Shown in pieces: positions 24,653 through 59,317 of a stretch of DNA of 64,000 nt. Position numbers and translations under genes: made by a program. Under the pieces are notes generated by a model. It saw only the letters and a list, made by a program, of their open reading frames with translations, was not told where the DNA came from and did no database searches. Source of the stretch: Clostridia bacterium (GTDB taxonomy: Bacteria > Bacillota > Clostridia > UMGS1883 > UMGS1540). The stretch is taken from NCBI GenBank assembly GCA_017436645.1, contig JAFSCR010000025.1:543-64542 (forward strand), written 5' to 3'. The first letter of the stretch is position 1; every line of letters starts with the position of its first letter.

Positions 24653-25036
24653 TTAAAAGAGAAAGAAGAAACCCTTCAAAATATTGAAGGGTTTCTTTTC
24701 ATATATGCCTTTGGCAATCAGTTCAGAATACGTTTCAAGGTCCCTTGACCACGGTGTGATTTTCGAATTGCGGCGGTAACCCATGGAGCTGCCGTGAAGA
24801 TAGAGAAGAATGGGATATTCTTTTTTACTGTCAAAGTTTTCGGGAAGGTACACGTTATAACGAAGTGCACCATGTTCCATATCGGGGCGAACAACCTCGC
24901 CCGCAATTGTTTTCCAGACTCTGCCGGAAACGTTTTTTAGTGTGCCTTCTTCATGGACGGTGATTTCGGTTTCAACTTCGGGATGGGGATACATCACGCC
25001 CTGTGCATTCGTCGCAGCAGAAAAAGTCAGCGTCAT
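24653..25036 (-). pseudogene. Truncated alpha/beta-hydrolase (esterase/peptidase) fragment
   Basis: LRYNVYLPENFDSKKEYPILLYLHG is an esterase N-terminal motif, but the ORF ends in a hairpin before any GxSxG nucleophile motif and has no clear RBS. Confidence 0.6.
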
Positions 25037-25067
25037 TACGAGTACACAAATTCAATTCTTCTTTGCA

Positions 25068-26207
25068 TTATTTATATAGCTTATCATAATTTATTACCTT
25101 GGCACTTGAAACATCTACATCTCCAAGATATTTTGTGCTGTCAAGGCCTACGTTGTTACATAAGTCTATCATCTCTGCAACAGTACTCATATTAACAGGT
25201 ATTCCTTCTTTCAGCATTTTTTTCATACAAATGATTTCTTTTTCGCCATGGGTGTATATTGGAACATTTTCATCAGCACGCCTTGCATCTCGTAGCTCTT
25301 GCATAAAAACAGAAAGATTTTTCTTCATTAATTCTGCATCGCCAAAGATTTTGGGGTCGATTACGATAAAGCTGTGACATAGAGTTGAACCTTGTCCTTT
25401 TACTCTTGCGAAGTGATTTGAAGTGTTACCAAATGATGTTATTGCACTTAAAATTTCGCATATCATACTGTAACCATAACCTTTGTGGCTTCCCATTTCC
25501 TCGGTATTTCCGCCCATAACAAGAATGCCGCCGTCAGTTTTGTTGAATAGACATTCAAGTACGTGCTCTGCATCTGAAGAAACTTTTCCGTCCGAACCAA
25601 TAGCCCAACCCTCAGGCATTGGCTTGCCTTCCTTGTTATATACCTCAAGCTTTCCTCTCGGAACAACAGTAGTTGCGGCATCAAACCAGAATGGATATGG
25701 ATCTGCAGGCATTGCAAAGGCAATAGGATTGGAACCTAAAATGGCTTGTTTCGAGTTCGTATGAACAGCTATAGAATCAGAATTAGTTGTGGATATTCCG
25801 ATAAAGCCTGCATCACATGCCATCTTAGTATAATAACCTGCAATTCCATAATGGCAGGAATTGCGAACAGAAACCATTGCCATACCAACATTTCTTGCTT
25901 TTTCCATAGCTAAAGTCATTGCATAGTGAGCAGTTAGCTGTCCCATGCCGCTATGCCCGTCAATAACTGCTGAAACAGGCGTTTCAAATACAATCTCCGG
26001 CTTTGCGTCAAGATTTATAGATTTGTTTACAATACTCTGATAATATCTTGCAAGTCTCTGTGTTCCGTGTGACTTAATTCCGTACAAATCTGCCAGAATT
26101 AATACGTCTGTAATGATCTCTGACTCCTCCGCAGAAAAGCCAATTTTACAAAAGGCATCATAACACAAGCTTCTTAATTTTTCACTTTCAAATTTTATGT
26201 AACTCAT
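25068..26207 (-). CDS. Ldh_2 family (malate/L-lactate/ureidoglycolate-type) dehydrogenase
   Basis: ADLYG-x2-SHG, RNS-x-HYGIAG, LGSNPIA, D-x-AT and GSHKGYG motifs; visibly AT-rich. Confidence 0.9.
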   Translation of the reverse strand: MSYIKFESEKLRSLCYDAFCKIGFSAEESEIITDVLILADLYGIKSHGTQRLARYYQSIVNKSINLDAKPEIVFETPVSAVIDGHSGMGQLTAHYAMTLAMEKARNVGMAMVSVRNSCHYGIAGYYTKMACDAGFIGISTTNSDSIAVHTNSKQAILGSNPIAFAMPADPYPFWFDAATTVVPRGKLEVYNKEGKPMPEGWAIGSDGKVSSDAEHVLECLFNKTDGGILVMGGNTEEMGSHKGYGYSMICEILSAITSFGNTSNHFARVKGQGSTLCHSFIVIDPKIFGDAELMKKNLSVFMQELRDARRADENVPIYTHGEKEIICMKKMLKEGIPVNMSTVAEMIDLCNNVGLDSTKYLGDVDVSSAKVINYDKLYK

Positions 26208-26475
26208 TTGTCGTCATTCCTCTCCCCAAATTATATTTATATTATAACGTAATATAAATTAAATGGCAATATGTAAATGACAATATGTGAATGTTTAATA
26301 AAATTTTTATGATTCCTTAAAATATTCTGTGTTTTAAGTCGTATTCTTACACATTCTTTATAAATTTCATTGCAAGGCTCGCAATACCTTCATACTCTTC
26401 ATTTTCAAGCTTTTGCATTTACAATACCATTTCCGATGCCCACGCCAAAAAAAATAATTGGAAATGGTTTTTCGT

Positions 26476-27762
26476 TTATTTTTGTGCTTTCTTTGCCATC
26501 TGCGCTGTTATTTTGAGGAATGCATCAATATCGTCAGTGCCGTGGCAGTGGAGCGGCGATACACGGATGGCGCCTGCAAGACCCAGTGCCTCCAGTATTC
26601 GTTTGGAATAGATACTGGAAACCACTCTTTCGTAAACCGTTACGCCCCGTCGTTGGTACTCCGCCGTGCATGCCGTATAGTCCATATTTTCGATTTTAAT
26701 GGCACAAATCAGGTCACGGATTGTAAGGTCCGCCGTGTCCATAAATACAGTCACGCCCTCAATATGGCGAAGTCCCGGCACCTCCTTTGTCCCTTCCAGC
26801 ATGCGGTGCAGAAGCGCTCTTTCCTGCAGATGAATCCGGCGCATACCTTCCAGAAAACGCTCTCTTTTGCTCCCTGCACAGCCAAAATGTTCCCCGATGT
26901 TTACAACGTAATTCATAATTTCCATACACGCCGCAAAGTTTCCGGGGGCGCTTGTGCCAAGCTCAAACACGGATTGGTCTTTGGCGATGAGCTTATGGTG
27001 GGGAAGTGCCGCCACTCTGTCCGAAACATATGCAAAGCCGCATCCCCGAATGCCGAAAAACTTATAAGGCGCAAAGTTCATGCCGTCAATCCCTAAGGAT
27101 TCCACATCCATGGCGTGGTGTGGGGCATGCTGCACCGCATCGGAAACGATGTAAAGGTCAGGCTTTATGGCCCTTGCCTTCTTTACAATGTCCTCCATGT
27201 CCATAATGGTGCCGGAAATGTTGGAGGCGGACATAATGCTTAAAAGACAGGTGTCCCCATCCACATATTTAATAACCTCGTCCGCATCAATTCTGCCCGT
27301 TTGGGGGTTTGCAGGCACAACTCTTAGTTCCTTCCCCGTCTTTTTGCAGTAAAACTCCACCGCATCAAAGGCGGAAGGGTGCTCAATGGAGGAAACCACC
27401 GCATTTTTGCCGGGAATGTTTTCCATAATGAGGCCCACCATGTGGAACATGGTCTGGGAAGCCGTCAGCTCCGTTATAAGCGCCCCGCTCTTTGCTCCGA
27501 AAATAATTTCTAAAATTTCTTTGGTGCCCGTGTCCACAATATTTTTTAAATAGCGGGAGCGTGCATGAATCCGCTCAGGGCAGTCTGGAAAACATTCAAG
27601 CTCTGCTTTTGCATTTACACAAGCTTCAAGCCGCAAGCTGCCGCCCGAGTTTTCAAAGAACAGACGGTCCCCATAGATAGGGTCCGCATCTGCATGGCAA
27701 AACTTTGCCTTTAATTCTTTCTGATAATCGGCATCAAATAATAATCCGTTTGGGAAATGCAT
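26476..27762 (-). CDS. Class V PLP-dependent aminotransferase-fold enzyme
   Basis: FENSGGS, EHPS, DAVQHAPH, FAPYKFFG (PLP Lys), FELGT and IRVS motifs. Confidence 0.85.
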   Translation of the reverse strand: MHFPNGLLFDADYQKELKAKFCHADADPIYGDRLFFENSGGSLRLEACVNAKAELECFPDCPERIHARSRYLKNIVDTGTKEILEIIFGAKSGALITELTASQTMFHMVGLIMENIPGKNAVVSSIEHPSAFDAVEFYCKKTGKELRVVPANPQTGRIDADEVIKYVDGDTCLLSIMSASNISGTIMDMEDIVKKARAIKPDLYIVSDAVQHAPHHAMDVESLGIDGMNFAPYKFFGIRGCGFAYVSDRVAALPHHKLIAKDQSVFELGTSAPGNFAACMEIMNYVVNIGEHFGCAGSKRERFLEGMRRIHLQERALLHRMLEGTKEVPGLRHIEGVTVFMDTADLTIRDLICAIKIENMDYTACTAEYQRRGVTVYERVVSSIYSKRILEALGLAGAIRVSPLHCHGTDDIDAFLKITAQMAKKAQK

Positions 27763-45305: not shown

Positions 45306-46229
45306 TCAATGGTGGACAACAGTTTTACTTTTTTCTGATGTGTAATTTACAATGTAAATTCCAAAACTCACAAGCAATAATGCAACAATATACTGCCATG
45401 TGAATATATTCTCTTTCAGAAACAGTCCTGAAAGTATTGTGCCGGAAACAGGAATAACAAAATTATAAACACTTAATTTTCCTATGGGGTAGTTTTTCAA
45501 AAGCATGCTCCACAGAGTAAATCCTGCAGAAGAAACCAGTATAAGATACAGCAAAACAATAATTCCGGGGAGATTAACTGTTATTTCTCCACTATATCCG
45601 AACACTCCTGTGATGATCAATAAAAATCCACCAATCAACAAATTATAAGCAGTTACGGTAAAGCTATTATTTAGCTGTGAAGCTTTTTTGTTTATTGCGG
45701 AACCTATAACAAAAAAGGTTCCGGCAACCAATATAAGTCCTTCTCCCCAAAAAGAGATTTTTTCCACACCGCTATTTGCAAAACAAGCAATGACTACACC
45801 TGAAAATCCAATAAGGCAACCGGCAATTTTTTTGAAATTCAACTTGTCATCAGGGTAAATAAAGTGTGCTAATATTATAGCTATAAACGCCGATGCCGAA
45901 TTCACAACAGAACCGGATGCGCCTGTTGTATTTGACAAACCAACATAGAAGAATATGTATTGCATATATGTATATGTCAACCCAAGAAAAAAAACATTAA
46001 TCCAATTCCCTTTTTTAACGGCCGGAAATTTTTTCTGTTTTAATGAATCAATGATTAAAACTATAACTCCTGATATAAAAAACCTGATTCCAGCATAAAG
46101 AATTTTTGAAAATACATCATCAGATATGTTAAAAAATTTATATCCTAACTTAATCATCGGAAATGCGCTTCCAAATAAAACATTACAGAATACTGCTACC
46201 AAAACAGCCCTCATTGTTAATTTATTCAT
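45306..46229 (-). CDS. DMT/EamA family transporter
   Basis: About ten TM helices; GSAFP-x-IK-x-GY, AGIRF, FFY-x-GL and IPV-x-G-x-ILS-x-LFL-x-E motifs; AT-rich. Confidence 0.9.
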
Positions 46230-46938
46230 AATAATCCTCTGATTTACTTTTTTTATTTGCAATTGTTTTAATATTACCAATTACATTTTTTATATGTGTT
46301 TCCATGGTTTTAAACGCCTTTTGTGCATCACGTTCTGCAATTGCATCAGCTATTTCCTGATGTTCTAAAACTGCAGCTTTTCCGTTGTTTTCAACTGTAA
46401 ATAAGTTTTTCTTACATTCCATTGACGCTTCGTACAGTTGCTTATAAACCCTTATGTAAACTTCGTTATGTGCACAGGTAGCTATGCAATTATGAAACTT
46501 ATTATCAGACTCAATCATCCCTATGATATCGTGATTCTTATATGCCTTTTCAAAAAAAGAAAGTATGCCGAAAAGCGTGAATATTTCATCTTCAGTTGCT
46601 CGCTCTGCCGCATATTTGGAGACAGTGGGTTCAATTCCGAGTCTGAACTCTGAAATCTCAAGGTAATCATCCTCTTTCGAAAAAATGCTGTCTACGGCTG
46701 TTTTATTAAGCATCGACTCATCACAAGACGCAACAAAAGCACCTTTTCCCGGTTTCAATTCTAAAAAACCTATTGCCTGCAACACTTTCATCGCTTCACG
46801 CACAGTAGTTCTGCTTACTTTAAACTTATCACACACCTCATTTTCAGAAAGATACTTCTCGCCTTCTTTATAAGTACCTGAAAGTATGTCGGATTTTATT
46901 TCTCTTATAGTTTCTTCGATTTTAGAAAATTTCTTCAT
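46222..46938 (-). CDS. GntR/FadR family transcriptional regulator
   Basis: SE-x-E-x4-F-x-VSRTTVREA HTH, GKGAFV and an FCD domain (D-x2-FH, EH-x2-I). Confidence 0.93.
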   Translation of the reverse strand: MKKFSKIEETIREIKSDILSGTYKEGEKYLSENEVCDKFKVSRTTVREAMKVLQAIGFLELKPGKGAFVASCDESMLNKTAVDSIFSKEDDYLEISEFRLGIEPTVSKYAAERATEDEIFTLFGILSFFEKAYKNHDIIGMIESDNKFHNCIATCAHNEVYIRVYKQLYEASMECKKNLFTVENNGKAAVLEHQEIADAIAERDAQKAFKTMETHIKNVIGNIKTIANKKSKSEDYYE

Positions 46939-46951
46939 ATCAACTCTCCAT

Positions 46952-47001
46952 ATTGTATGACATCATACAATTATAATATCACGTCCCTTTTAGTTTGTCA
47001 A
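46952..47001 (-). promoter_or_regulatory. SigA promoter with an adjacent FadR-type operator (probable autoregulation)
   Basis: Minus strand TTGACA-17-TATTAT followed by the palindrome ATTGTATGA-N2-TCATACAAT (46952-46971). Confidence 0.7.
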
Positions 47002-47002
47002 C

Positions 47003-47038
47003 AAAAAATACTCGTCCAAATTACATAGACGAGCATTT
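47003..47038 (-). terminator. Intrinsic terminator after spoIVB fragment 1
   Basis: AAAAAATACTCGTC-CAAATTACATA-GACGAGCATTT; shares ATAGACGAGCATTT with the 45139-45169 hairpin. Confidence 0.7.
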
Positions 47039-47041
47039 AAG

Positions 47042-47092
47042 TTATTTAATTTTTTCAGATTCTGTCAACATATTCTCAATAAATACCCCGTA
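47042..47092 (-). pseudogene. spoIVB: Displaced short 3'-end copy of spoIVB (fragment 1)
   Basis: Reads [16 protein letters not shown], matching YGVFIENML of the intact gene with synonymous changes. Confidence 0.85.
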
Positions 47093-47102
47093 CGTGCTGT
47101 TA

Positions 47103-47263
47103 ATGAATTGACAACCCTGCTGTCATGAATTGGCTTCGCCATGAATTCTCGCTCCGCTCCATGAATTGAATTGCCTTTTCATGCACCGAAAGGTGCAATT
47201 CATGAGCCAAAAGGCTCAATTCATGAAACTGGAAGTTTCAATTCATGCCGTAAGGCAATTCAT
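47103..47263. repeat. Array of small hairpins separated by CAATTCATG/CATGAATTG linkers (REP-like), copy 1
   Basis: ATGAATT units at 47103-47172 face four hairpin-AATTCAT units at 47181-47263; the array overlaps the spoIVB stop codon. Confidence 0.85.
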
Positions 47264-48480
47264 TCTGCCCCCTCTGCCGCCGCCAGCATATTCTCGATAA
47301 ACACCCCGTACCCACGTGTTGGGTCATTGACAAATACGTGTGTTACGGCACCAATGAGTTTTCCGTTCTGCACAATGGGGCTTCCGCTCATGCCCTGCAC
47401 AATACCGCCCGAAAGAGAGAGAAGGCGCTCGTCGGTAATGCGGATGACCATATTTTTATTACTGTCCTTTTTATGGGGAAATATTTCCTGAATTTCTGCG
47501 GCATAGCCTACAGGTGCGCCGCCGGCAATGTCGGTATACACGGTGGCGGAGCCTTTTTCCACCTGGGTGCTGACGCCGATGGGAATGCGAGGGGCCGAGG
47601 GAAGACTTTCCCGTTTGCCGTAAAGACCGAGATGGGTGTTTTTTGAAATGGTGCCGAGGGTGTCTTTTCCGAATACACCGCAAATTTCTCCCGGGGCACC
47701 CGGTTCACTTTTGGTAATGAAAGCAATGGAGCAGTCTGTAATACTGCCGCCTGCAGGCTCTAAAACGCCCCCCGTTTCAAAATCTTCAATGGCGTGACCG
47801 AGAGCACCGTAAACGCCGGTTTCCGGCTGACAAAACGTAACCGTTCCCACCCCTTGTGCGCTTTCCTTTACCCAAAGGCCGATTTTATAGCTTCCGCCGT
47901 CCCCATAATATACGGGGGTGATGACGGTGTCCTGTATCTTGCCGTCTCTTGAAACGGTAAGGGTAATGGGCGCACCGCCGCTTTCTTTTACTGCCCTGTC
48001 CAGTGCATCCGTTCCGGAGAGGGGCTCGTGATTCAGTTTCAGAATTCTGTCCCCTGTTCGGATGCCGGCCTCTTTTCCGGGGCATATGCGCCTCTCGCCG
48101 GGGATTTCACTCATGGCCACCACAATAACGCCCTGCATATAGAGCTTTATGCCTACGGTTTCGCCGCCCAGAATCACAGCCTGCGGGTCCACCACCTGAA
48201 TGGTGGCGGTTTTTCGGAGAAGACCAAAGACGGAAAAATCCACATTGTATGCCCCTGTTTTCTGCGGCGTCAGAAATGCTTTATTTCCGTTTTTTTCAAA
48301 TAAAAAACCGTCCTCCGCCCCATAGGGCGTAAAGAAGGCCGGCAAGGAATGCGCTTCGCCTTCGAGCATGGTAAACTGCCCGGGCAAAAGCGAAAACTGC
48401 TGAAGAAGGAACACGGCCGACGATATAAGAAGCACCGCACTCCCTTTCAGCAGAATTTTAAATTTTCGCATTTTTCTCAC
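47260..48480 (-). CDS. spoIVB: SpoIVB serine peptidase (S55, PDZ domain)
   Basis: PDZ-like AGI-x2-GD-x-I, G-x-GTVTF, YGALGH-x-I-x-D and [30 protein letters not shown] motifs. Confidence 0.96.
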   Translation of the reverse strand: MRKMRKFKILLKGSAVLLISSAVFLLQQFSLLPGQFTMLEGEAHSLPAFFTPYGAEDGFLFEKNGNKAFLTPQKTGAYNVDFSVFGLLRKTATIQVVDPQAVILGGETVGIKLYMQGVIVVAMSEIPGERRICPGKEAGIRTGDRILKLNHEPLSGTDALDRAVKESGGAPITLTVSRDGKIQDTVITPVYYGDGGSYKIGLWVKESAQGVGTVTFCQPETGVYGALGHAIEDFETGGVLEPAGGSITDCSIAFITKSEPGAPGEICGVFGKDTLGTISKNTHLGLYGKRESLPSAPRIPIGVSTQVEKGSATVYTDIAGGAPVGYAAEIQEIFPHKKDSNKNMVIRITDERLLSLSGGIVQGMSGSPIVQNGKLIGAVTHVFVNDPTRGYGVFIENMLAAAEGAE

Positions 48481-49891: not shown

Positions 49892-50028
49892 TTTAATCCC
49901 TTCTCTCCTTGTTTTCTGGGGGTATTGTATCACAAGGGAAGGGGAAAGGCAAGGCTTTTTTTGCGGAAAAAAATCTTTTGACATTTTATACAAGATATAG
50001 TATAATGTAGACTAGGTAGGTGGTATTT

Positions 50029-51990
50029 ATGACAAATTACGGCAATGAAAGCATATCCAGTTTAAAGGGTGCAGACAGAGTCCGCAAACGTCCCGGTGTT
50101 ATTTTCGGCTCGGACGGGCTGGAGGGCTGTCAGCACGCTGTTTTTGAAATCCTCTCAAACTCCATTGACGAAGCCAGAGAAGGCTACGGCAAGGTTATTG
50201 AGGTTACACGTTTTCTTGATAAATCCATAGAAGTCAAAGATATGGGCCGTGGCATTCCCATGGAATATAACCCCAAGGAAGAACGGTATAACTGGGAGCT
50301 TGTATTTTGTGAAATGTATGCAGGCGGCAAGTATGACAATAATTCCGGTAAGAACTATGAGTATAGCCTTGGTCTCAACGGTCTCGGCAGCTGCGCCACC
50401 CAGTATGCCTCTGAATATATGGAAGTCACCGTCCAGCGAGACGGTTACCGCTATCAGCTTTTCTTTGAAAAGGGCGAAAATCAGGGCGGCCTTTATAAGG
50501 AACAGGTAAGATACCGCCACACGGGCACCACCATTAAATGGCGGCCGGACCTGGACGTTTTTACGAATATTGATATTCCTCTCGAGTTTTTCCAGACCAC
50601 GATGAAGAAACAGGCTGTTGTCAACGCCGGCATTACCTTCAAGCTGAAAAATGAAACAAAAGAAGGCATGGAGGAATACGTTTACTGCTATGAAAACGGA
50701 ATTTCCGACTATTTGCAGGAGGTCAGCGGTGAGGGCGCCTTTACGGGCATTGCCAGATATGAAGCCGAATGCACCGGACGGGACAGAGAGGATATGCCCG
50801 ATTACAAACTCCGTATGCAGGTGGTATTCTGTTTTAATAATACGGATACGATTTTGGAGTATTACCATAACTCCAGCTTCCTCGAGCATGGCGGTTCCCC
50901 TGAAAAGGCAGTAAAAAGCGCCTTTGTTTCGGCACTGGATGCCTATATCCGAGGGGCAAACAAGTATACAAAAGGCGAATCGAAGATTACGTTTCAGGAC
51001 GTGCAGGACAGCCTTTGCCTCGTTATGAACTCCTTCTCCACCATGACGAGCTATGAAAACCAGACGAAAAAGGCCATCACCAACCCCTTCATCGCCGAAG
51101 CCATGACGGATTTCCTCCGCAAAAATCTGGAAATCTACTTTATTGAAAACCGCATCGAGGCAGAAAAAATTGCCGAGCAGGTGCTTCTCAATAAGCGAAG
51201 CCGTGAAACGGCGGAAAAAACGAGAGTAAATTTAAAGAAAAAGCTTGCAAAGAATATTGACGTTACAAACCGAGTCCAGAAGTTTGTGGACTGCCGCACA
51301 AGGGACACGGAACGCCGTGAGCTTTATATCGTGGAAGGCGACTCGGCACTCGGCTCCGTAAAGCTTGCCCGAAATGCAGAGTTTCAGGCCATTATGCCCG
51401 TCCGTGGTAAAATCTTAAACGTTTTAAAATGTGATTTGCCCCGTATTTTCAAAAGCGATATTATTATGGACCTGATGCGGGTGCTCGGCTGCGGCATTGA
51501 AGTGAAAACCAAGGACTTTAACAGCTTTGACCTTGAAAACCTGCGATGGGATAAAATTATTATCTGTACAGATGCGGACGTTGACGGCTATCATATCCGC
51601 ACCCAGATTCTGGCCATGATTTTCCGCCTGACGCCCACACTCATCCGTGAAGGCAAGGTGTACATTGCCGAATCGCCCCTTTTTGAAATCACCACAAAGA
51701 ACGAAACCTTCTTTGCCTACACCGAGCAGGAAAAGGCGCAGATTCTCTCCCAGCTCGGCAATACGAAATGCACCATTCAGCGCTCTAAAGGTCTTGGCGA
51801 AAATAATCCGGACATGATGAGTAAAACCACCATGAACCCCGAATCCCGCCGCCTTATCCGTGTCCTTCCCGAGGATGTGGAAAAAACGGCAGAAGTGTTC
51901 GAGCTTCTCCTCGGCGATAACCTGCAAGGGCGAAAGGACCATATTGCAAAGGTCGGCGCACAGTATATTGACCTTGCCGATGTAATGTAA
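50029..51990 (+). CDS. Type IIA topoisomerase B subunit (GyrB/ParE-like, divergent clostridial type)
   Basis: E-x3-NSIDE, D-x-GRGIP, GLNGLG, VEGDSA, PVRGKILN, TDADVDG-x-HI and KGLGE motifs; TTGACA...TATAAT promoter at about 49978-50006. Confidence 0.92.
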   Translation: MTNYGNESISSLKGADRVRKRPGVIFGSDGLEGCQHAVFEILSNSIDEAREGYGKVIEVTRFLDKSIEVKDMGRGIPMEYNPKEERYNWELVFCEMYAGGKYDNNSGKNYEYSLGLNGLGSCATQYASEYMEVTVQRDGYRYQLFFEKGENQGGLYKEQVRYRHTGTTIKWRPDLDVFTNIDIPLEFFQTTMKKQAVVNAGITFKLKNETKEGMEEYVYCYENGISDYLQEVSGEGAFTGIARYEAECTGRDREDMPDYKLRMQVVFCFNNTDTILEYYHNSSFLEHGGSPEKAVKSAFVSALDAYIRGANKYTKGESKITFQDVQDSLCLVMNSFSTMTSYENQTKKAITNPFIAEAMTDFLRKNLEIYFIENRIEAEKIAEQVLLNKRSRETAEKTRVNLKKKLAKNIDVTNRVQKFVDCRTRDTERRELYIVEGDSALGSVKLARNAEFQAIMPVRGKILNVLKCDLPRIFKSDIIMDLMRVLGCGIEVKTKDFNSFDLENLRWDKIIICTDADVDGYHIRTQILAMIFRLTPTLIREGKVYIAESPLFEITTKNETFFAYTEQEKAQILSQLGNTKCTIQRSKGLGENNPDMMSKTTMNPESRRLIRVLPEDVEKTAEVFELLLGDNLQGRKDHIAKVGAQYIDLADVM

Positions 51991-52073: not shown

Positions 52074-52110
52074 AAAAAAGCGACTTGCTAAAAACAAGTC
52101 GCTTTTCTTT
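52074..52110. terminator. Bidirectional terminator
   Basis: AAAAAAGCGACTTG-CTAAAAA-CAAGTCGCTTTTCTTT. Confidence 0.8.
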
Positions 52111-52111
52111 T

Positions 52112-52186
52112 TGGCACCCTCTACGTGAGTCGAACACGTGACTAGCCCTTAGGAGGGGCTTGTTATATCCACTTAACTAAGAGGGC
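52112..52186 (-). tRNA. tRNA-Arg (anticodon CCT)
   Basis: Reverse complement is GCCCTCTTAGTTAAGTGGATATAACA-AGCCC-CTCCTAA-GGGCT-AGTC-ACGTG-TTCGACT-CACGT-AGAGGGTG-CCA. Confidence 0.95.
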
Positions 52187-52194
52187 ATAGTGCT

Positions 52195-52223
52195 ATTATA
52201 CCCCGTCTTACCATTTTTGTCAA
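52195..52223 (-). promoter_or_regulatory. Consensus SigA promoter for tRNA-Arg
   Basis: Minus strand TTGACA-17-TATAAT, 8 nt upstream of the tRNA. Confidence 0.85.
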
Positions 52224-52245
52224 TATCAAAGCACTACATCCCTTT

Positions 52246-53529
52246 TTATTTTGCTTCATATCGGATAAGTCTCCCTGCTTCCGATGCATTTTTATATTTT
52301 CCTGCGGCGATGAGTCCGTAAAGCGCTGCACCGAAGGAAGCTTCCTCAAGATGGGCAGGAACAGAAAGCGGATGCCCGAAAATTTCTTCCAGCTCTTTTT
52401 TAAGTGCCTCGTTTTTGCGGATGCCGTTGCCGCTTCCCACAATGCCGCGAAGTGGAATTCCCATTTCCTTTTGCATACGGAAAAGCTCTTCCGCCATACC
52501 CCGAAGAATGCCTTTCGTGAAGGAAGCAGGGGTAAAGTTTTCCGTGCGGATGCCCGAAATGCTCCCTGAAAGGGACGGGTTTTGCCGCGTGCCTGCAAAA
52601 CGGGTGTCAACGGAAAGGGGCGAAACAGCCGTATTTGCCATTTCATCCATAAAAGCATAGATTTCTCCGTCATCCGGTGATGCAAAAGGCGAAATAACAG
52701 ATTTAAAAAAGTCCTTCAGAAGGGAATAGGCCCTGCCGCCGCAAAGTGCCGCACCGCAGGCGAGGTACTTGCCTTCAAAATACGGTCTCGTTTCCACATT
52801 TTCTGTTTTCAAAATTTTTTCCGTCACCACAGAAATCTGACTGCCCGTGCCGATGTTTAAAAGGGCAGTTCCGGTTTCCCGAAGGGAAGAAAAAACGCTT
52901 GCCTGATTATCCCCGATAGGAAGAGCGACGGGAACGCCCCGATAGGTGCCTATAATTTGATACCCTTCCTCGGGCACGATTCCCACATCATAGGAAAAGC
53001 TGTGGGTTAAAAGGTCAAAAAAGCCAAGACTTGCCGCATTTGTAATATGCATTCGAGGGGCGGCGAGACCGCAAAGGTGCATGGCAAAATAGTCCATAAT
53101 GGTGCAAAAATATGCAGCCTCTTTCGGTCTTATGCCGTTTTCTCTGTTGTAAAAATCCGTAACGCACCCGTATCCTGCAGGGGTGGAAAGGTGGATAGCA
53201 TAAGTAGTGTCTTTATAGGGAAGGTCGCCGCGTCCGTCCTGCCAGGTATAAAGGGGGCTTATGCTCTGCCCTTTCTTATCCACATATACAATGCCGTGCA
53301 TCTGCCCCGTTATGCCGATGACAGCGACTTCGGGCGTAATAAAAGCATCTAAAATCCCTTTTGCCACGTCCAGAATTTTCTCAACGGACTGGATTTTCTC
53401 AAAAGATGCGGAAGGGGGCAGAAAAGCATTACTTTGGACGGTTTCCCTTCTTAAAACCTCGCCCGTTTCCGCATTAAGAAGTATGCCGCAGATGCTCGTG
53501 GTGCCAATATCAATTCCAATGGCGTGCAT
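52246..53529 (-). CDS. FGGY carbohydrate kinase, sedoheptulokinase-like
   Basis: GIDIGTTS, GITGQMHG, YTWQD-x-R, NAASLG, GDNQAS, LNIGTGSQIS and ALCGG motifs. Confidence 0.85.
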   Translation of the reverse strand: MHAIGIDIGTTSICGILLNAETGEVLRRETVQSNAFLPPSASFEKIQSVEKILDVAKGILDAFITPEVAVIGITGQMHGIVYVDKKGQSISPLYTWQDGRGDLPYKDTTYAIHLSTPAGYGCVTDFYNRENGIRPKEAAYFCTIMDYFAMHLCGLAAPRMHITNAASLGFFDLLTHSFSYDVGIVPEEGYQIIGTYRGVPVALPIGDNQASVFSSLRETGTALLNIGTGSQISVVTEKILKTENVETRPYFEGKYLACGAALCGGRAYSLLKDFFKSVISPFASPDDGEIYAFMDEMANTAVSPLSVDTRFAGTRQNPSLSGSISGIRTENFTPASFTKGILRGMAEELFRMQKEMGIPLRGIVGSGNGIRKNEALKKELEEIFGHPLSVPAHLEEASFGAALYGLIAAGKYKNASEAGRLIRYEAK

Positions 53530-54197
53530 TATAAAACCTCCAGAAAAGCTTTCAGCCTTTGGGCGATGATTTTATGTCCTTCGTCGCTTGGGTGCACGCC
53601 GTCCGGCATAAAAGCTTCGCGGACTTCTTCAATTTCAGGCTGAATAGGGCAAGTGGCAAAAAGGTCTAAAACGGGAAGACCGTAAAATTCTGCCACCTCT
53701 CTGATGGCGGTGACATAGTCCTTTAAAGTACCGAAGCCGTAAACTTTTTCCTGCCCGTTGTTTTTCGTTTCGTTTGTGCGGTGAAGTGGCGTCATAATCA
53801 CAATGGTTTTTCCGAGATATTTTCGGATAAGCCCCGAGAAAAGATAGTGGCAGGCACCGTAAAAGGTGTCGGGCGTTCTATCACAAAAAGCGCCCATAGG
53901 TGCATCGCCGTGGCCGAAATCGTTGGTGCCGCCGAACACCACTACAACGTCCGCATCGTCATCCATTTTATCATATCGCTCAGAAAAAGAGTTTACATCC
54001 ACGAAAGTATCTTTAGGGCGAAGGGGCGTTCCTTTCTGTAGCGCAAACCGTGTGCCGCCAATGCCGTAATTTCGGATTTCTGCAAGATTTGCCTCCCGCT
54101 TTAAAATGGCGCAGTAGGTCGCTTCTTTACTGGAAGCTTTTACGCCTTCCGTAATGCTGTCGCCAAGAAAATTTATTTTTAAGCCTTCAAGTTTCAT
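53529..54197 (-). CDS. SGNH/GDSL hydrolase
   Basis: FLGDSITEG, GIGGT, FGGTND and DGVHP motifs. Confidence 0.92.
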   Translation of the reverse strand: MKLEGLKINFLGDSITEGVKASSKEATYCAILKREANLAEIRNYGIGGTRFALQKGTPLRPKDTFVDVNSFSERYDKMDDDADVVVVFGGTNDFGHGDAPMGAFCDRTPDTFYGACHYLFSGLIRKYLGKTIVIMTPLHRTNETKNNGQEKVYGFGTLKDYVTAIREVAEFYGLPVLDLFATCPIQPEIEEVREAFMPDGVHPSDEGHKIIAQRLKAFLEVL

Positions 54198-54243
54198 TTT
54201 TCTCTTCCTTTCTTAAGCCTTATGGGGTTCGCCTCCCCTTGGC

Positions 54244-55305
54244 TTAACCCAGACAAACTTCCGCCGCACTCGGCAAAGGTGCAAGGGGCGAGGTGGGAAG
54301 GGTCTGGTACCAATATGCCACCGTCACAAAATCATCGTGGCGGTGGAGGTTACCGTGGGGCGAAAAACGAATATCCTGCAGCGTCATCCGAAATTCCTTT
54401 TCAAAGCGGATGGGGTCCGGCAGGTGCCAGCGGTAAAGCATAAAGCGGGGCATCATTGTTTTTCCCGAAAAAGGTTTGCCCGCTATGGGGCCGAACATAG
54501 CATACATCCCCATATAAGGGGTGGAATAGGTCTGATACTTGCCGAGAAGAGGGTCGCAGTCCCCGAAATTATAAGAGCCACCGAAATAATCTTCAAGTCC
54601 CGTATAATTTATAGAGGGGTATTTCTCACCGTCAATGTACATTTTCGGTTCCCCCTCCGTCCAGCAGCCGCCGCAGCCTCCGGGGGTCACGCCCATGGAA
54701 AGACCGACGAAATGCCCTTTCCCTTTTATGCCGTCAACGGCAACGTACGCACGCAAAGGGTCCGTGGGGAGTGCCTGCCGGTAGGATGCACAGAAATAAA
54801 GGGAATCTTCGGGCACTTCTCTATATTCCCCCGTAATCATATAGTGGGTTTTGATGGCTTCCGAAGGATGGCGGTTTTCGAGGGTGATTCTGCAGTGCTT
54901 TTTAAAGGGCATCTGCCAGAAGCAGTTAAGACCGCGGCAAGGGGTAACGGAAACCATAGCGGAGGAAAGGGTGGGAAAATTCCCGTCCGTATCCACCACA
55001 TTTTCGTAAAAAGGATAGGCGAAGAAAGCGGAAAGAGGAGATTCCACGCTGGGGTTTTTCTGCCCGTCCCAGTAAATTCTTAAAATAAAGTCCCAGGGCG
55101 CAAAGCCGCCGAACCACATACTTTCAATCACACCGGGTCCGTCCGTGTCTACAAGGGTCAGCGTTTCCCCCGGTTGTACCCAAAGAAGGCATTGCCGTTT
55201 TTCAAGATGATCGCCCTGACTTCCGCCTCCCTTTTCCCCTTTCGGGTTTTCGGGACAAAAGGCAAAGCTTTTTGCATTTATGCTTCGGGTTAAATCAGTA
55301 AACAT
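54244..55305 (-). CDS. DUF2961 / GH172 family glycoside hydrolase
   Basis: ENP-x-GEKG-x-G, GPG-x-I, LRIYWD, MPF, W-x-EGE-x-K-x-YIDG, TGLEDYF, YRWH-x2-DPI-x-F and VAYWYQ motifs. Confidence 0.88.
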   Translation of the reverse strand: MFTDLTRSINAKSFAFCPENPKGEKGGGSQGDHLEKRQCLLWVQPGETLTLVDTDGPGVIESMWFGGFAPWDFILRIYWDGQKNPSVESPLSAFFAYPFYENVVDTDGNFPTLSSAMVSVTPCRGLNCFWQMPFKKHCRITLENRHPSEAIKTHYMITGEYREVPEDSLYFCASYRQALPTDPLRAYVAVDGIKGKGHFVGLSMGVTPGGCGGCWTEGEPKMYIDGEKYPSINYTGLEDYFGGSYNFGDCDPLLGKYQTYSTPYMGMYAMFGPIAGKPFSGKTMMPRFMLYRWHLPDPIRFEKEFRMTLQDIRFSPHGNLHRHDDFVTVAYWYQTLPTSPLAPLPSAAEVCLG

Positions 55306-55372
55306 ATTGATTTCCTCCAATTTCTTTCTGGTTTCAGTATAACACGCCTGAAATTTCTTTGCAAGAAAAAGG

Positions 55373-57685
55373 CTACATTTTCGTTGAGTTTAAATCGAGC
55401 CTTGTAATAATGTCCTTCTGAATGGCGGGAGAAAGGTCTAAAAAGTTTACGAACGTGCCGTGAATCCGCATAATGTAAACGCCGCTGGGGGCATATTTTT
55501 TCGGGTTTTCCAAAACTTTGCGAAGCATGTCGGGCGTGGTGACGTTTACATAGAGGTAAAACGGCGAAACACCTTCCGAAAGCGGATTAAAGAAGAGGGG
55601 CAAAATCACATTTTCATAAAACTCTGTGCCTTTTTCCTCGTTTGTTTCACCACGGAAATATTTCGGGTCAATGCCGAGATGGGAAGCATAGCCGCCGCGG
55701 AATTTTTCAAAAGGCAGCTGCATATTGGAAAGCATACGGAAGCCGAGGCCCCCGCTCGCTTCGCCATATAAGGGGTCAACGCCATACCCCAGCATATCAC
55801 GGCTACGCCGTCCGTCAGGCGTGGCGCCCACCCAGTACCCGTAGGTAAGGTGGGTGGAAGGAGACGAAAAGTCAGGGCGGAAAGGATTGCCGAGATAGTT
55901 TTTCCGTTTTGAAAGCATATCGGAAACTCTTTCTGCGATTTCTGCCGCTTCCCTGTCAACTTCTTCGATGTTGTTGCCAAATTTCGGGCAGGCAAGAAGG
56001 AAAGTGCGTAATTCCTCATAGCCTTCAAAATTATTTTTGAGGGCAGAAAGGAGCATTTCCGCCCCGTCCGGATATTTTTCAAGAAATTTATCAATGGCGA
56101 TAAAGGAATCGGCTAAAACGGAAAGCCCGTGGATAAGACAGCCGCTTCCGTTATACTTTGTGCCCTGCACCTTTGTGTCCCGCATATCGGCGCCGTATTC
56201 CATGCCGCCCATAAAAACGCTTAAAAACGGCACGCGAAGATGGGAAAGGGCGCAGGATGCACCGTTTGCCGCCCGGCACATTTCGTCCATAACTTTTTCG
56301 AGGGTTTTATAGAAAGCTGTGCGAATCCGGGAAAGGTCATACGGCTCGGTCTCCATAAGCTTTTCGCCGGAAATGGCGGATGTACCGCCAAAGAGTACCA
56401 TTTCCAGAACTTTCGGAAGACTGAGCCAGCTGTTTGTGGTGTTGCCGTTGTCTTTTCCCATAATCAGGGGTTCCTGACAGCCTGCCACGGCATAGTCGGC
56501 AAGGTCCGCAGAATCAATGCCGTCATTTTCCAAAATGGCGAAAACCGAATCGTCATTAAAAAGGGACGGCGTCAGAACACCGGGGGAGAAGAAAAATCTG
56601 CCCATTTCTTCGTAAAGCTTTTGAGGCGTATTTTTGTGCAGCTTCACAGACAGAATAGGCTGGGGCAGGTTCATATCAAAGTAGGCATCGAGAATGGCGT
56701 AGGACATGGTGTTTGTAAGGTCCCTGCCCTCCGCATCCCGTCCGCTGATTAAAACGTTTTGAGAAATTGCCCAGCTTCTGTCCCCAACGTTATAGAAAAC
56801 AAGGAAATGCTTAAAAAGGGCGGCGGCTTCCTCTCTCGAAAGTGCGCCGCGGAAAGGCTCAAAAATTCTGTCCGCACCTCCGATGGAAAAGGCGTAAGGG
56901 TTCGGCGCCTGTTCAAGGCACATCACCTGCCAGAGGAGAAGGTAAAGCTGCATTGCCTCGTGCAGGTTTTTTGCACCCCCTGAAAGGATGGAAGAAAGAG
57001 AGGCTTCCATTTTGGAAATCCGCACCGTATTTTCCGCTGTCTTTTGTGCCTTAAGAATGGAAAGGTAGCGGCGAATAAGAATTTTCACGCCGTCCAAAGC
57101 GATGGCGGCGGCTTCATAAAAGGCACCGTCCTTCTTTTGGGCGTCGGCAATTAAGGCATCTATGCCGTAATGTAGGGCAAAGCGGAAATCGGGAATTACA
57201 TGCCCCGTTACCTGCTCAATGAAAAAAACAACTTCCCCTGTGTAGTTTTCCGCCTTTTTATATGTTTCGTTCAAAGCGGCAACCATGGGAGATTTTGCCG
57301 TGTGGGTGCGAACGCGTCCAATTCTTTCTTCCGTAAATTCTTCGTTTGGTGCAATGTCTCTATAAATGGCAAGGGGGTCGCAGTACCCCGAAAAGCCTTC
57401 CACCGTAAAGGAAGGGTTTATAAGGGCGTAGCTTTTTGCAAAGGCATCCCGCTGTGTGCCGACGAAGATGGCATTTTCGCTGACGGAGAGGGAAATGGTG
57501 CGAAGTACCTCACATAAAAGATGTGCCTTTTTGACCTCGGGATCAAACTTTGCATATTTTTCCTCCGAAAGCATTTCCGTTTCTTTGGCGAGAAACCATC
57601 CGTCAAGCCTTTTGATTTCCCGTTCTTCTCTGTAAAGTGCTTTTGCCATTTCCGTAATTTTTTCGGGGCTTAAAATCTGATTCAT
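55373..57685 (-). CDS. Glycyl radical enzyme (PFL superfamily), divergent, substrate unknown
   Basis: DYAVAGCQEP Cys loop, PKFGN, GATPDGR, and the C-terminal Gly loop IMRIHGTFVNFLDLSPAIQKDIITR. Confidence 0.85.
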   Translation of the reverse strand: MNQILSPEKITEMAKALYREEREIKRLDGWFLAKETEMLSEEKYAKFDPEVKKAHLLCEVLRTISLSVSENAIFVGTQRDAFAKSYALINPSFTVEGFSGYCDPLAIYRDIAPNEEFTEERIGRVRTHTAKSPMVAALNETYKKAENYTGEVVFFIEQVTGHVIPDFRFALHYGIDALIADAQKKDGAFYEAAAIALDGVKILIRRYLSILKAQKTAENTVRISKMEASLSSILSGGAKNLHEAMQLYLLLWQVMCLEQAPNPYAFSIGGADRIFEPFRGALSREEAAALFKHFLVFYNVGDRSWAISQNVLISGRDAEGRDLTNTMSYAILDAYFDMNLPQPILSVKLHKNTPQKLYEEMGRFFFSPGVLTPSLFNDDSVFAILENDGIDSADLADYAVAGCQEPLIMGKDNGNTTNSWLSLPKVLEMVLFGGTSAISGEKLMETEPYDLSRIRTAFYKTLEKVMDEMCRAANGASCALSHLRVPFLSVFMGGMEYGADMRDTKVQGTKYNGSGCLIHGLSVLADSFIAIDKFLEKYPDGAEMLLSALKNNFEGYEELRTFLLACPKFGNNIEEVDREAAEIAERVSDMLSKRKNYLGNPFRPDFSSPSTHLTYGYWVGATPDGRRSRDMLGYGVDPLYGEASGGLGFRMLSNMQLPFEKFRGGYASHLGIDPKYFRGETNEEKGTEFYENVILPLFFNPLSEGVSPFYLYVNVTTPDMLRKVLENPKKYAPSGVYIMRIHGTFVNFLDLSPAIQKDIITRLDLNSTKM

Positions 57686-57698
57686 ATTTTTCCTCCGT

Positions 57699-58400
57699 TT
57701 ATGTAGTGATTACTGAAAGACCGCGACTTTTAAATGCTTCTTTAAAAGCCGCCACCGTTTCCTTTGGCATAAATCCATCTTGAACAAGGTAAGGCGTTTT
57801 CCATTTTTCCTTGCCGTATTCGTGATAGGGCAAAAATTCAAAACACGTGTTTTTTGTGTCGTACTTTGCAAAGAAATCTGCAAAAGCCTCGGGGAAATTG
57901 CCGTTAAATTCCCGAATGAGGGGGATGCGGATGTGTTGCCTTTGTCCCGAATTGCAGTTTTTCGCAAAGTTCTGCAAGGTCACTTCGTTTCCGAGACCCG
58001 TATATGCTTTATGCACCGCAGGGTCATAATGCTTTATATCCATAATGAGATAATCGATAAAAGGGAGAAGATCCCCGAGCTTTTCCGAAGAGCCGTTTGT
58101 TTCAAGGCAGGTGTGAATGCCCTCTTTTTTCAGAAGCTTTAAAAGAGACAAAAGTTCATCAAATTGAAGGGTTGCCTCACCGCCCGTAAACGTAACGCCG
58201 CCGCCCGAAAAAAAGAGCTTCCGACTTCTTATGCATTCTGAAAGGAGTGTTTCGACTGTATATTCTTCCCCTGCCTCCCCCGAAAACCCTTCGGGATTCG
58301 AGCACCAGATGCAGCGCATATTGCAGCCTGCAAGGTGGTAAACGAGGCGGTTTCCCGGTCCGTCCTGAGAAAAGTTAAATCCTTTTTGAAAAATCCGCAT
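57699..58400 (-). CDS. Glycyl-radical activating enzyme (radical SAM)
   Basis: DGPG-x-R, GCNMRCIWCSNPE (CxxxCxxC), GGVTFTGGE, ETNG, DIK and LPYH motifs. Confidence 0.93.
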   Translation of the reverse strand: MRIFQKGFNFSQDGPGNRLVYHLAGCNMRCIWCSNPEGFSGEAGEEYTVETLLSECIRSRKLFFSGGGVTFTGGEATLQFDELLSLLKLLKKEGIHTCLETNGSSEKLGDLLPFIDYLIMDIKHYDPAVHKAYTGLGNEVTLQNFAKNCNSGQRQHIRIPLIREFNGNFPEAFADFFAKYDTKNTCFEFLPYHEYGKEKWKTPYLVQDGFMPKETVAAFKEAFKSRGLSVITT

Positions 58401-58516
58401 GCTACTTCTCCGATTATGTTTTTTTCTATTATAACACGGAAGGCATTGGGAGAAAAATTGACAAAAAGGAAAAAATGATGTAAAATAAAGAAAATATTTT
58501 CGAAAGGAAGGCTTGC

Positions 58517-59317
58517 ATGTACGCTTTTTTCTCTCCGGACGTCCGCCATCATATCACGGAAGCAAACGTAAATTACTATAAAAATCCTTTTATGCATCCT
58601 TCCCGCACCATGGCGGAGCATGATTTTATTTATATTTTGCAGGGGGAATGGAAATTCGGGCAAAACGGCGTTTGCCTTCCCGCAAAAAAGGATTCCCTTC
58701 TGATTCTGAGCGCTATGGAGCATCACTATGGCGTGGAGGAATGTACAAAGGGAACAAAAACCATGTATTTCCACGTAAGCCGCGAGATGGGGGACCGCTT
58801 TTCGGATTTAAAAGAGAAATGCGGGGAAGAAATTATGGCGGCAACGCTTCTGGATGCCGGCGGCATTCCCAAAATCAAAAAGTATTTTTCAAATATAGTT
58901 TCCGCAAAGCTTGCAGGAAAGGAAAGAGAAGCGGACGTGTGGTTTGACCTTCTGCTTTGCACCGTCGCGGAAGCGATGGAAAGCGGCGAAAGATCCGATA
59001 TTGCCGAACAGCTGAAGCACATTATTCATAAAAACCCCGAAATTTTTTATTCCAATGAAAAGCTTGCAAAGCTGGTGAAGGTTTCCGTAAAAACGGCGGA
59101 GAATAAGTTTAAAGCTGCCACGGGGCTTACCCTTCACCAGTATCTTCTGCAGTTTAAAATGGAGGAAGCCGTTTCCTATTTTAAAATTTTCCCCGAGCTT
59201 TCCGTAAAGGAAGTTGCCCATAACCTCGGGTTTTATGATGAATACCATTTTGCGAAGCAGTTTAAAAGACTCATGGGCAAATCTCCCGGCAAATATAAAA
59301 AAGAACTTTCCGAATAA
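58517..59317 (+). CDS. AraC family regulator, divergent from the GRE operon
   Basis: HP-x-R-x-M-x-EHD cupin sensor; LGFYDEYHF-x-KQFK-x3-G-x-SP; TTGACA-17-TAAAAT upstream. Confidence 0.92.
   Translation: MYAFFSPDVRHHITEANVNYYKNPFMHPSRTMAEHDFIYILQGEWKFGQNGVCLPAKKDSLLILSAMEHHYGVEECTKGTKTMYFHVSREMGDRFSDLKEKCGEEIMAATLLDAGGIPKIKKYFSNIVSAKLAGKEREADVWFDLLLCTVAEAMESGERSDIAEQLKHIIHKNPEIFYSNEKLAKLVKVSVKTAENKFKAATGLTLHQYLLQFKMEEAVSYFKIFPELSVKEVAHNLGFYDEYHFAKQFKRLMGKSPGKYKKELSE

Follow-up and report, generated by a model that had tools for sequence, protein, structure and literature searches.

Gene organization of the locus

The DNA analysed here (the window) is a 64,000-nucleotide stretch of contig JAFSCR010000025.1 from the genome assembly of a Clostridia bacterium (GCA_017436645.1). 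The open reading frame (ORF) list and Pfam annotation of the window placed five tightly packed minus-strand genes at 52246-59317, encoding a radical SAM activase, a glycyl radical enzyme (GRE), a GH172 protein, an SGNH/GDSL esterase and an FGGY kinase, with an AraC-family regulator gene facing away from them. The Pfam assignments of all six proteins exceeded the cut-offs of the respective models. The features are as follows:

52112-52186, minus strand: tRNA-Arg(CCT), predicted by ARAGORN, at the low-coordinate border of an island (see below)
52246-53529, minus strand: FGGY kinase, 427 amino acids (aa), Pfam FGGY_N and FGGY_C
53529-54197, minus strand: SGNH/GDSL esterase, 222 aa, Pfam Lipase_GDSL_2
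54244-55305, minus strand: GH172 (DUF2961) protein, Pfam DUF2961, with the ORF open from TTG 55320 (358 aa)
55373-57685, minus strand: GRE, 770 aa, Pfam PFL-like
57699-58400, minus strand: radical SAM activase, 233 aa, Pfam Radical_SAM and Fer4_12
58401-58516, no strand: divergent control region of 116 bp between the activase and AraC genes
58517-59317, plus strand: AraC-family regulator, 266 aa, Pfam HTH_18/HTH_AraC

These coordinates and domains bear out the arrangement given in an earlier note on this DNA, which had described five co-oriented, closely spaced genes divergent from an AraC regulator. The activase gene lies 13 nt upstream of the GRE gene, the GRE and GH172 genes are separated by 52-67 nt and the GH172 and SGNH genes by 46 nt, and the SGNH stop overlaps the kinase start by 1 nt. 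Ribosome-binding sites precede the GRE gene, the SGNH gene and the GH172 ATG at 55305; this ATG, with its GGAGGA site, appears a likelier GH172 start than the TTG at 55320. In a promoter scan, the hits of which are consensus matches only, the control region contained a candidate promoter at 58458-58486 on the plus strand (11 of 12 consensus positions), and the tRNA-Arg gene had its own promoter-like site at 52223-52195 (TTGACA-17-TATAAT). The AraC regulator would control the operon. The low-coordinate flank carries the tRNA-Arg(CCT) gene, a divergent GyrB-like gene and a MATE transporter gene, and the other flank carries a LysM-GH18 gene and uxaC. As the same note had stated, no formate, acetate or microcompartment genes adjoin the operon among the ORFs and Pfam domains of the window.

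Catalytic loops and class placement of the GRE

The GRE contains a PFL-like ten-stranded barrel domain at residues 18-616 (PF02901, 316.8 bits against a cut-off of 24.3). Its Cys loop reads AGC403-Q-E405-P, and its Gly loop reads MRIHG743T with a 3-residue insert ahead of it. In an alignment of the family to which the GRE belongs, here named F1, Cys403, Glu405, R740 and Gly743 were invariant in all 78 members, and the longer motifs AGCQEPLIMGK and RIHGTFVNF were kept in 77 of them. The radical glycine (Gly743), the catalytic cysteine (Cys403) and the Glu of the C-x-E loop are thus all retained in the GRE. RIHGT aligned with RVxG of PflB, PflD and YbiW, and G-C403-Q-E405 aligned with GCVE of PflD and GCIE of YbiW. 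In the available part of a GRE review, a C-x-E Cys loop is ascribed to six C-O cleaving eliminases and three isomerases, YbiW, PflD and HplG (PMC13450708). Judged by alignment, the Cys loop of the window GRE is of this C-x-E type of C-O/C-N/C-S cleaving GREs.

Pyruvate formate-lyase (PFL) chemistry is excluded because the loop holds a single Cys, where PflB has ACCVS, and the PFL equivalog TIGR01255 gave 80 bits against a cut-off of 994. The view of the earlier note that the GRE is not of the PFL type is thus upheld by a C-x-E loop instead of Cys-Cys. A separate canonical PFL is encoded on contig C5 of the same genome (682 bits).

The top NCBIfam model for the GRE was that of the broad PFL2-3 subfamily (TIGR01774), which requires 678 bits and gave 210. 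PflD-type PRK09983 (167 against 1109), HpsG (157 against 1000), HypD (131 against 1100) and CutC (113 against 1050) came below it, and the HpfG and decarboxylase equivalogs likewise scored under the PFL2-3 score and far below cut-off. The nearest PDB sequences were glycerol dehydratase (1r8w, E 1.6e-47) and PflD (8yjo, E 6e-45). With E. coli PflD the GRE shares 29% identity, with YbiW 25% and with PflB 26%; PflD, the second-best PDB match, was also its closest E. coli GRE. F1 came out as a clade with 100% support and a long stem in a quick maximum-likelihood tree that included three known GREs. A family member was found in one of 400 other genomes across the phylum, and no F1 intermediates were detected in these genomes at E<=1e-70. 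On this sequence evidence the GRE belongs to no characterised class; the earlier note had called it unassignable, and the NCBIfam scores, the identities and the separate clade agree with this.

The activase carries C26-x3-C-x2-C and fell slightly short of the NCBIfam model PFLE_PFLC (162 bits against a cut-off of 174). Alignment with E. coli PflA, PflC and YbiY revealed that it lacks the Cys-rich ferredoxin-like insert of PflC and YbiY, and it is therefore of a PflA-like minimal type. Activases of the Blautia branch (loci L075, L076 and L078) retain a Cys-containing insert after CX3CX2C, and most other F1 activases have none.

A conserved activase-GRE-kinase module

A scan of species-representative genomes (one genome per species) yielded 158 relatives of the GRE, and the best 80 loci, with GREs approximately 59-77% identical to that of the window, were analysed. 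F1 is large: a separate search listed at least 120 homologues, all of those listed at >=75% identity, and the homologues number about 3,600 in total. Genes in the 80 loci were called by a longest-ORF script, so that gene lengths and a small number of adjacency counts are not exact. Neighbouring genes were scored by tblastn, and only loci in which 2.6 kb or more follows the GRE gene, 69 in all, entered the in-operon counts.

An activase gene was present in 78 of the 80 loci and kinase orthologues, at 36-59% identity, in 71; four of the nine loci without a kinase end at a contig border. Within the co-directional run of the GRE gene, the kinase was found in 59 of 69 loci, a phosphomannose-isomerase-like (PMI-like) gene in 45 and GH38 in 10. 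The kinase linkage proposed in the earlier note is thus kept among homologues. AraC orthologues (49-56% identity) were located divergently upstream of the activase gene in 21 of the 80 loci, all of them in the clade with GREs about 72-78% identical to that of the window. GH172 and SGNH genes were detected in none of the 80 loci by tblastn, even at E<=1e-4. The adjacency of activase, GRE and kinase genes exceeds chance; that of the GH172 and SGNH genes does not. The conserved unit is therefore activase-GRE-kinase, a portable three-gene module that is usually accompanied by the PMI-like isomerase.

Carriers of F1 are nearly all metagenome-assembled genomes of gut or rumen Clostridia. The family is also present in cultured strains, namely Blautia schinkii DSM 10518, Blautia sp. 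XA-2221, Ohessyouella blattaphilus and a Bacillota isolate.

The window kinase, a short member of its family, matched FGGY_N at 50.1 bits (cut-off 28.8) and FGGY_C at 38.7 bits (cut-off 27). Its top NCBIfam equivalog was XylB (84.9 against a cut-off of 380), and no equivalog cut-off was reached. The top PDB match was weak (E 6e-8), and the C-terminal half aligned best with glycerol kinases.

An island beside tRNA-Arg with GH172 and SGNH genes inserted

The host genome assembly is 1.75 Mb in size and 94% complete. The F1 GRE family was detected in none of its 40 nearest relatives, eight of the same genus among them, and GH172 relatives (41% identity) were detected in two. In the closest genome, G115 of the same genus, the GyrB-like and LysM-GH18 genes are 2 kb apart, compared with 7.4 kb in the window, and the alternative segment between them holds another ORF, of 463 aa, together with the same tRNA-Arg in opposite orientation. 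The tRNA-Arg region of the window includes an 82-nt stretch 100% identical to G115, with flanks at 79%. The G+C content of the operon is 48.4%, against 45.5% for the genome. These comparisons indicate that the module arrived by horizontal transfer, as an island beside tRNA-Arg. In contigs of runs X4 and X8, the tRNA segment (52108-52255) is bounded by joints to opposite strands at 52108 and 52252-52255. The opposite orientation of tRNA-Arg in G115, X4 and X8 implies that strains differ by rearrangement of the site that separates the operon from the GyrB-like gene.

Four other studies, of goat, pig, wildlife and bovine gut, yielded contigs with the order kinase-SGNH-GH172-GRE-activase at roughly 95% identity. 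These contigs bridge the kinase-SGNH, SGNH-GH172 and GH172-GRE junctions, and one of 4,821 bp spans 53910-58761. Hence, the mosaic is real and circulating and is not an assembly artefact. The PMI-like gene and GH38 were not found anywhere in the host genome at its 94% completeness.

The SGNH protein matched Lipase_GDSL_2 at 84.5 bits, with 7bxd as the top PDB match (E 3e-26), and blocks I, II, III and V were intact as read in the translation (FLGDSITEG, YGIGGTR, FGGTNDF and DGVHP). It is predicted to be a cytoplasmic esterase encoded by a lineage-specific insert. The GH172 gene, likewise a lineage-specific insert by sequence comparison, encodes a protein with a DUF2961 score of 240 bits and no signal peptide seen by eye. 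The protein belongs to the same DUF2961 family as alphaFFase1 of Bifidobacterium dentium, a difructose dianhydride I synthase/hydrolase (7v1v), and the exo-alpha-D-arabinofuranosidase 8ic8 of Microbacterium. Both motif glutamates are kept, those of TEGE and LEDYF aligning with WGEG and TEDYF of 7v1v and 8ic8; we take E270 and E291 to be the catalytic glutamates of alphaFFase1. The window protein differs from these two in being remote (E 3e-26 to 7v1v and 1e-43 to 8ic8) and GRE-linked, and no other examined GH172 locus was GRE-linked: in 80 metagenome loci carrying GH172 relatives, neither GRE nor activase nor SGNH genes were present. The closest GH172 relatives in JGI metagenomes were at most 45% identical. 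The one case of an SGNH gene near a GRE gene, in genome G093 (50% identical, 5 kb away), was rejected as unlinked, as DnaB/DnaC-like genes lie between. A promoter-like site at 55336-55364 on the minus strand (TTGCAA-17-TATACT with a TG extension; consensus match only) lies within the 67-nt gap from the GRE stop to the GH172 ATG, and this putative internal promoter could have been brought along with the inserted GH172-SGNH pair.

The earlier note had regarded the five genes as one pathway of de-esterification, hydrolysis, phosphorylation and a radical step. Spelled out, the SGNH esterase would de-esterify and GH172 would hydrolyse an acylated alpha-D-fructo- or arabinofuranoside, and the kinase product would be the dedicated substrate of the GRE. 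This proposal accords with the co-directional genes with their overlaps or short gaps, with the intact SGNH blocks and GH172 glutamates, with the same gene order in the four other studies, and with loci L043, L049 and L050, where the GRE gene is combined with GH38 and a different type of esterase, an alpha/beta-hydrolase. As one conserved pathway, however, it found no support in the comparison of loci, since GH172 and SGNH were absent from all 80 GRE loci, and GRE, activase and SGNH from all 80 loci of GH172 relatives, and the usual PMI-like partner was not found in the host genome. Moreover, the GRE family occurs elsewhere with GH38, GH32, GH116 or no glycosidase, so GH172 cannot define the GRE substrate. 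We therefore regard the five genes as a lineage-specific mosaic, and a linear route through all of them as improbable.

PMI-like partner and accessory genes in other F1 loci

ORF clustering identified the fourth common partner in 50 of the 80 loci as an approximately 340-aa type-I PMI-like cupin. It matched 1qwr in the PDB (E 2e-17) and kept the motifs QAHPD, GKTESW, HAIGAG and LEVQEPTD. Of 399 sampled Clostridia genomes, 17 encoded an orthologue at >=48% identity, in 14 cases within an F1 GRE-kinase cluster. The neighbourhoods of PMI-like paralogues without a GRE (L125-L128) gave no clear substrate hint.

Among the other accessory genes, GH38 alpha-mannosidase was present in 17 of the 80 loci and GH32 in L009, L019 and L027. 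G093 carries a compact cassette of activase, GRE and GH32 genes, divergent from an AraC gene, amid housekeeping genes, with the kinase elsewhere in the genome. The L062 locus encodes a D-psicose 3-epimerase that passed its equivalog cut-off (375 bits against 300), and three further loci hold related genes. Sugar ABC transporter genes of CUT2 type occur in L062, L074 and L075, in place of a phosphotransferase system (PTS). Proteins of the TAL_FSA family (220 aa) are encoded in L006, L010, L076 and L078; those of the Blautia branch (L076 and L078) lie inside the operon and passed the fructose 6-phosphate (F6P) aldolase equivalog (252 bits against a cut-off of 214). In alignment with E. coli FsaA and FsaB, L076 and L078 have Gln/Tyr at the positions of FsaA Q59/Y131, and L006 and L010 have Glu/Phe; we take the former pair to mark F6P aldolases and the latter TalC-type transaldolases. 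At least one of the PMI-like, GH38, GH32, psicose-3-epimerase-like and TAL_FSA genes was found in 64 of the 80 loci. The GH38, GH32, psicose 3-epimerase and F6P aldolase genes point to mannose- or fructose-shaped substrates.

Such a substrate could be the hexose itself, with the GRE performing a novel radical dehydration or ring opening on D-fructose or fructose phosphate and the FGGY protein acting as a manno- or fructokinase; GH172, GH32, psicose 3-epimerase, and GH38 with the PMI-like isomerase would then all supply fructose. The convergence of accessory genes on fructose and mannose in 64 loci fits this idea, as do the GH32 gene directly after the GRE gene in G093 and L009 and the epimerase of L062. 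The PMI-like gene was also not found where another fructose source is encoded, namely in the host genome, with GH172 in the operon, and in L027, with GH32; L009 and L019, on the other hand, hold both PMI-like and GH32 genes. Against it, the fermentation of fructose and mannose proceeds without radical chemistry, and no product with a metabolic advantage could be derived. Phosphofructokinase (PFK) is encoded in the host genome, so a bypass is not obviously needed. Taken together, we consider a GRE acting on fructose or its phosphate unlikely.

Class II fructose-bisphosphate aldolase (FBA; PF01116) and the DeoC/FbaB-type aldolase (PF01791) were not found in the 94% complete host assembly. All of 20 relatives have PF01116, in many cases on small contigs, and the missing FBA of the host is therefore most simply an assembly gap. 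A control search with PF00274 gave no match anywhere and was hence uninformative. A glycolytic bypass was set aside, as PFK is present and the absent FBA is likeliest an assembly gap.

The range of linked glycosidases, which besides GH38, GH32 and GH172 includes GH116, GH51 and GH4, is of unrelated glycone specificity, and this would be expected if glycosidases and esterases freed a small, glycerol-like polyol that the GRE dehydrates, with the FGGY kinase phosphorylating the polyol or its product. Glycerol dehydratase 1r8w as the top PDB sequence match and the alignment of the C-terminal half of the kinase with glycerol kinases are in line with such a polyol substrate. As in glycerol dehydratase DhaB1 of Clostridium butyricum (1r8w), propanediol dehydratase (PD), HypD, CutC, HpsG/HpfG and IslA, the Cys loop of F1 is of C-x-E type, and a His is conserved in the G-H motif that follows the first barrel strand. 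F1 differs from glycerol dehydratase and the other 1,2-eliminases in equivalog scores far under cut-off, including that of PFL2-3, and in having Ala and Thr at the positions aligned to Ser282 and Asp447 of glycerol dehydratase, presumably the glycerol-binding residues. Unlike those of GRE 1,2-eliminases, F1 loci contain no microcompartment, aldehyde dehydrogenase or alcohol dehydrogenase genes, nor is a 1,3-propanediol dehydrogenase linked, and the PMI-like partner would be unaccounted for. Dehydration of a released polyol is thus quite improbable.

A C7 substrate was also considered. Atlas neighbours of the kinase, which the earlier note had called sedoheptulokinase-like, are labelled sedoheptulokinase (feature score 0.98, TM 0.97), and TalC-type genes are present in L006 and L010. 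If the kinase were a true sedoheptulokinase, the PMI-like protein would interconvert glycero-manno-heptose and sedoheptulose, TalC would lead into the pentose phosphate pathway, and the GRE would prepare an unusual C7 sugar or heptitol. The labels are automatic cluster names, however, no locus contained a heptose-specific gene, and the role of the GRE would be undefined, so that we give a heptose route very little credence. Sulfoglycolysis was rejected: the sulfoquinovose isomerases and kinases in the available part of PMC9594981 belong to other families (PF07221, PF02952, PF00294 and PF00365), and no GH31 or sulfonate genes were linked.

A possible kinase-coupled counterpart of anhydroglycolysis

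By its structure, 1,5-anhydro-D-mannitol is both 1-deoxy-mannopyranose and 2-deoxy-fructopyranose. In E. coli, ybiW and pflD have fsaA and fsaB as flanking genes, the pflD gene lying within a 'fructose-like' PTS operon. The reaction by which PflD/YbiW-type lyases are defined yields 1-deoxyfructose-6-phosphate. As far as the available parts of two sources describe it, YbiW/YbiY and PflD/PflC carry out 'anhydroglycolysis' as C-O lyases of 1,5-anhydroglucitol-6-phosphate and 1,5-anhydromannitol-6-phosphate (PMC13450708, PMC12441222), and one transporter takes mannose, fructose, 1,5-anhydroglucitol and 1,5-anhydromannitol (PMC12441222). This transporter range, the aldolase context shared with PflD/YbiW and the mannose/fructose accessory genes led us to favour a kinase route of PflD/YbiW type. 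The best explanation overall, which we put forward tentatively, is that the locus carries a portable activase-GRE(F1)-FGGY module acting as a kinase-coupled analogue of PflD/YbiW, to which GH172 and SGNH have been added here. With somewhat more reserve, we suggest by analogy that the module is a kinase-dependent counterpart of E. coli anhydroglycolysis on a mannose- or fructose-shaped sugar analogue.

In this scheme, the analogue, with 1,5-anhydro-D-mannitol and 1,5-anhydro-D-glucitol as lead candidates, would be imported unphosphorylated and then phosphorylated by the FGGY kinase. The thiyl radical of the GRE would take a hydrogen from a carbinol carbon, Glu405 would deprotonate the hydroxyl, and cleavage of the adjacent C-O bond would give a deoxy-ketose phosphate. 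This product would be split by an enzyme of F6P-aldolase/transaldolase type or by a housekeeping aldolase. At the window locus, GH172 and SGNH stand between the GRE and the kinase, in the place of the isomerase, and would probably hydrolyse and deacylate an imported alpha-D-fructo- or arabinofuranoside, the sugar of which shares the kinase.

F1 resembles YbiW and PflD in being a PFL-like GRE with a C-x-E loop, an adjoining activase and a sugar context, and in the F6P aldolase of some F1 operons, which parallels fsaA and fsaB beside ybiW and pflD. It differs in having an FGGY kinase and ABC transporters instead of a PTS, a PMI-like partner, a minimal PflA-type activase, the RIHGT loop with its 3-residue insert, a PRK09983 score far under cut-off, and a separate clade.

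Several observations weigh against the explanation favoured here. The Pfam Gly_radical model did not match the GRE at E<=0.001, and the RIHGT loop deviates from R-V-x-G-[YFW], the usual Gly loop motif. In alignment, many pocket-region residues differ from PflD and YbiW: Asn270 replaces the Arg common to both, and NTTN at 415-418 replaces L/R-H/C-D/T-I/G. The operons of L009, L026, L043, L049 and L050 have room downstream but lack a kinase, and the G093 operon is likewise without one, so that the substrate of the GRE may be unphosphorylated. Only 4 of the 80 loci contain aldolase or transaldolase genes, and TAL_FSA was not found anywhere in the 94% complete host genome. The PMI-like isomerase would have no obvious role on a carbonyl-free 1,5-anhydrohexitol, and we know of no natural anhydrohexitol glycosides that GH38, GH32 or GH172 would release.

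A formulation that leaves the substrate wider is that F1 represents a new functional GRE class, performing radical chemistry on a ketohexose-shaped substrate, either fructose/mannose derivatives or 1,5-anhydro mimics delivered via a PTS-unrelated kinase route, with the RIHGT loop and a single-cluster activase; we rate this as possible, though rather doubtful. If true, it would add an undescribed, widespread branch of anaerobic sugar fermentation in Clostridia of the herbivore and human gut. GREs catalyse chemically hard steps of anaerobic metabolism, and the F1 substrate, once found, would add a carbohydrate catabolic route of the gut and a new reaction or substrate class in GRE enzymology. 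The stable three- to four-gene signature makes F1 directly testable. The module is mobile, and its isomerase is exchangeable for glycosidase and esterase genes.

The available part of a June 2026 review of GREs lists no GRE with the F1 gene context (PMC13450708). Full-text searches found no literature pairing 'glycyl radical' with GH172 or FGGY, and searches pairing it with mannose-6-phosphate isomerase or psicose returned unrelated titles only. New here are the GH172/SGNH mosaic and its recurrence in contigs of four other studies, the acquisition of the island at a variable site next to a tRNA gene, the convergence of accessory genes on fructose and mannose, the split between FSA and TalC types, the minimal activase, and a second GRE family with a paralogous PMI-like cupin.

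A second uncharacterised GRE family and other observations

This second family, F2, comprises GREs of 730-739 aa from L120-L124 (e.g. L122, 5512-13513). As in F1, the activase and GRE genes adjoin a gene for a PMI-like cupin, the F2 and F1 cupins being 35-38% identical paralogues, in an operon of sugar type. F2 differs from F1 in GRE sequence (22% identical), in its Cys loop G-C-H-W, which thus lacks the Glu of C-x-E, in its Gly loop RVTGF, and in an operon without a kinase. The F2 operon encodes a 299-aa activase, a 258-aa cupin, the PMI-like cupin, xylose-isomerase-like TIM barrels and two or three Gfo/Idh/MocA oxidoreductases.

A second GRE-activase pair, unrelated to F1, was found beside the F1 module at L058 (14876-17500; 874-aa GRE and 305-aa activase) and at L043 (1306-4333, on the opposite strand; 726-aa GRE and 281-aa activase). 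On contig C14 of the host genome (approximately 24769-26828), genes for RhaA and a class II aldolase lie together and are 72% and 82% identical to genes beside the F1 module in L012; C14 holds none of the FGGY_N matches of the host genome.

The G+C content falls steeply at 46000-47500 of the window, to 0.33-0.40, whereas the genome averages 0.455. The GyrB/ParE-like protein of 656 aa at 50020-51990 (plus strand) scored 500 bits against the gyrB cut-off of 740 and 485 against the parE cut-off of 882. It is 90-97% conserved in five same-genus genomes, each of which has a second match at about 35% identity. The protein appears to be an additional, divergent paralogue of the type IIA topoisomerase B subunit, and its gene lies next to that of the MATE transporter.

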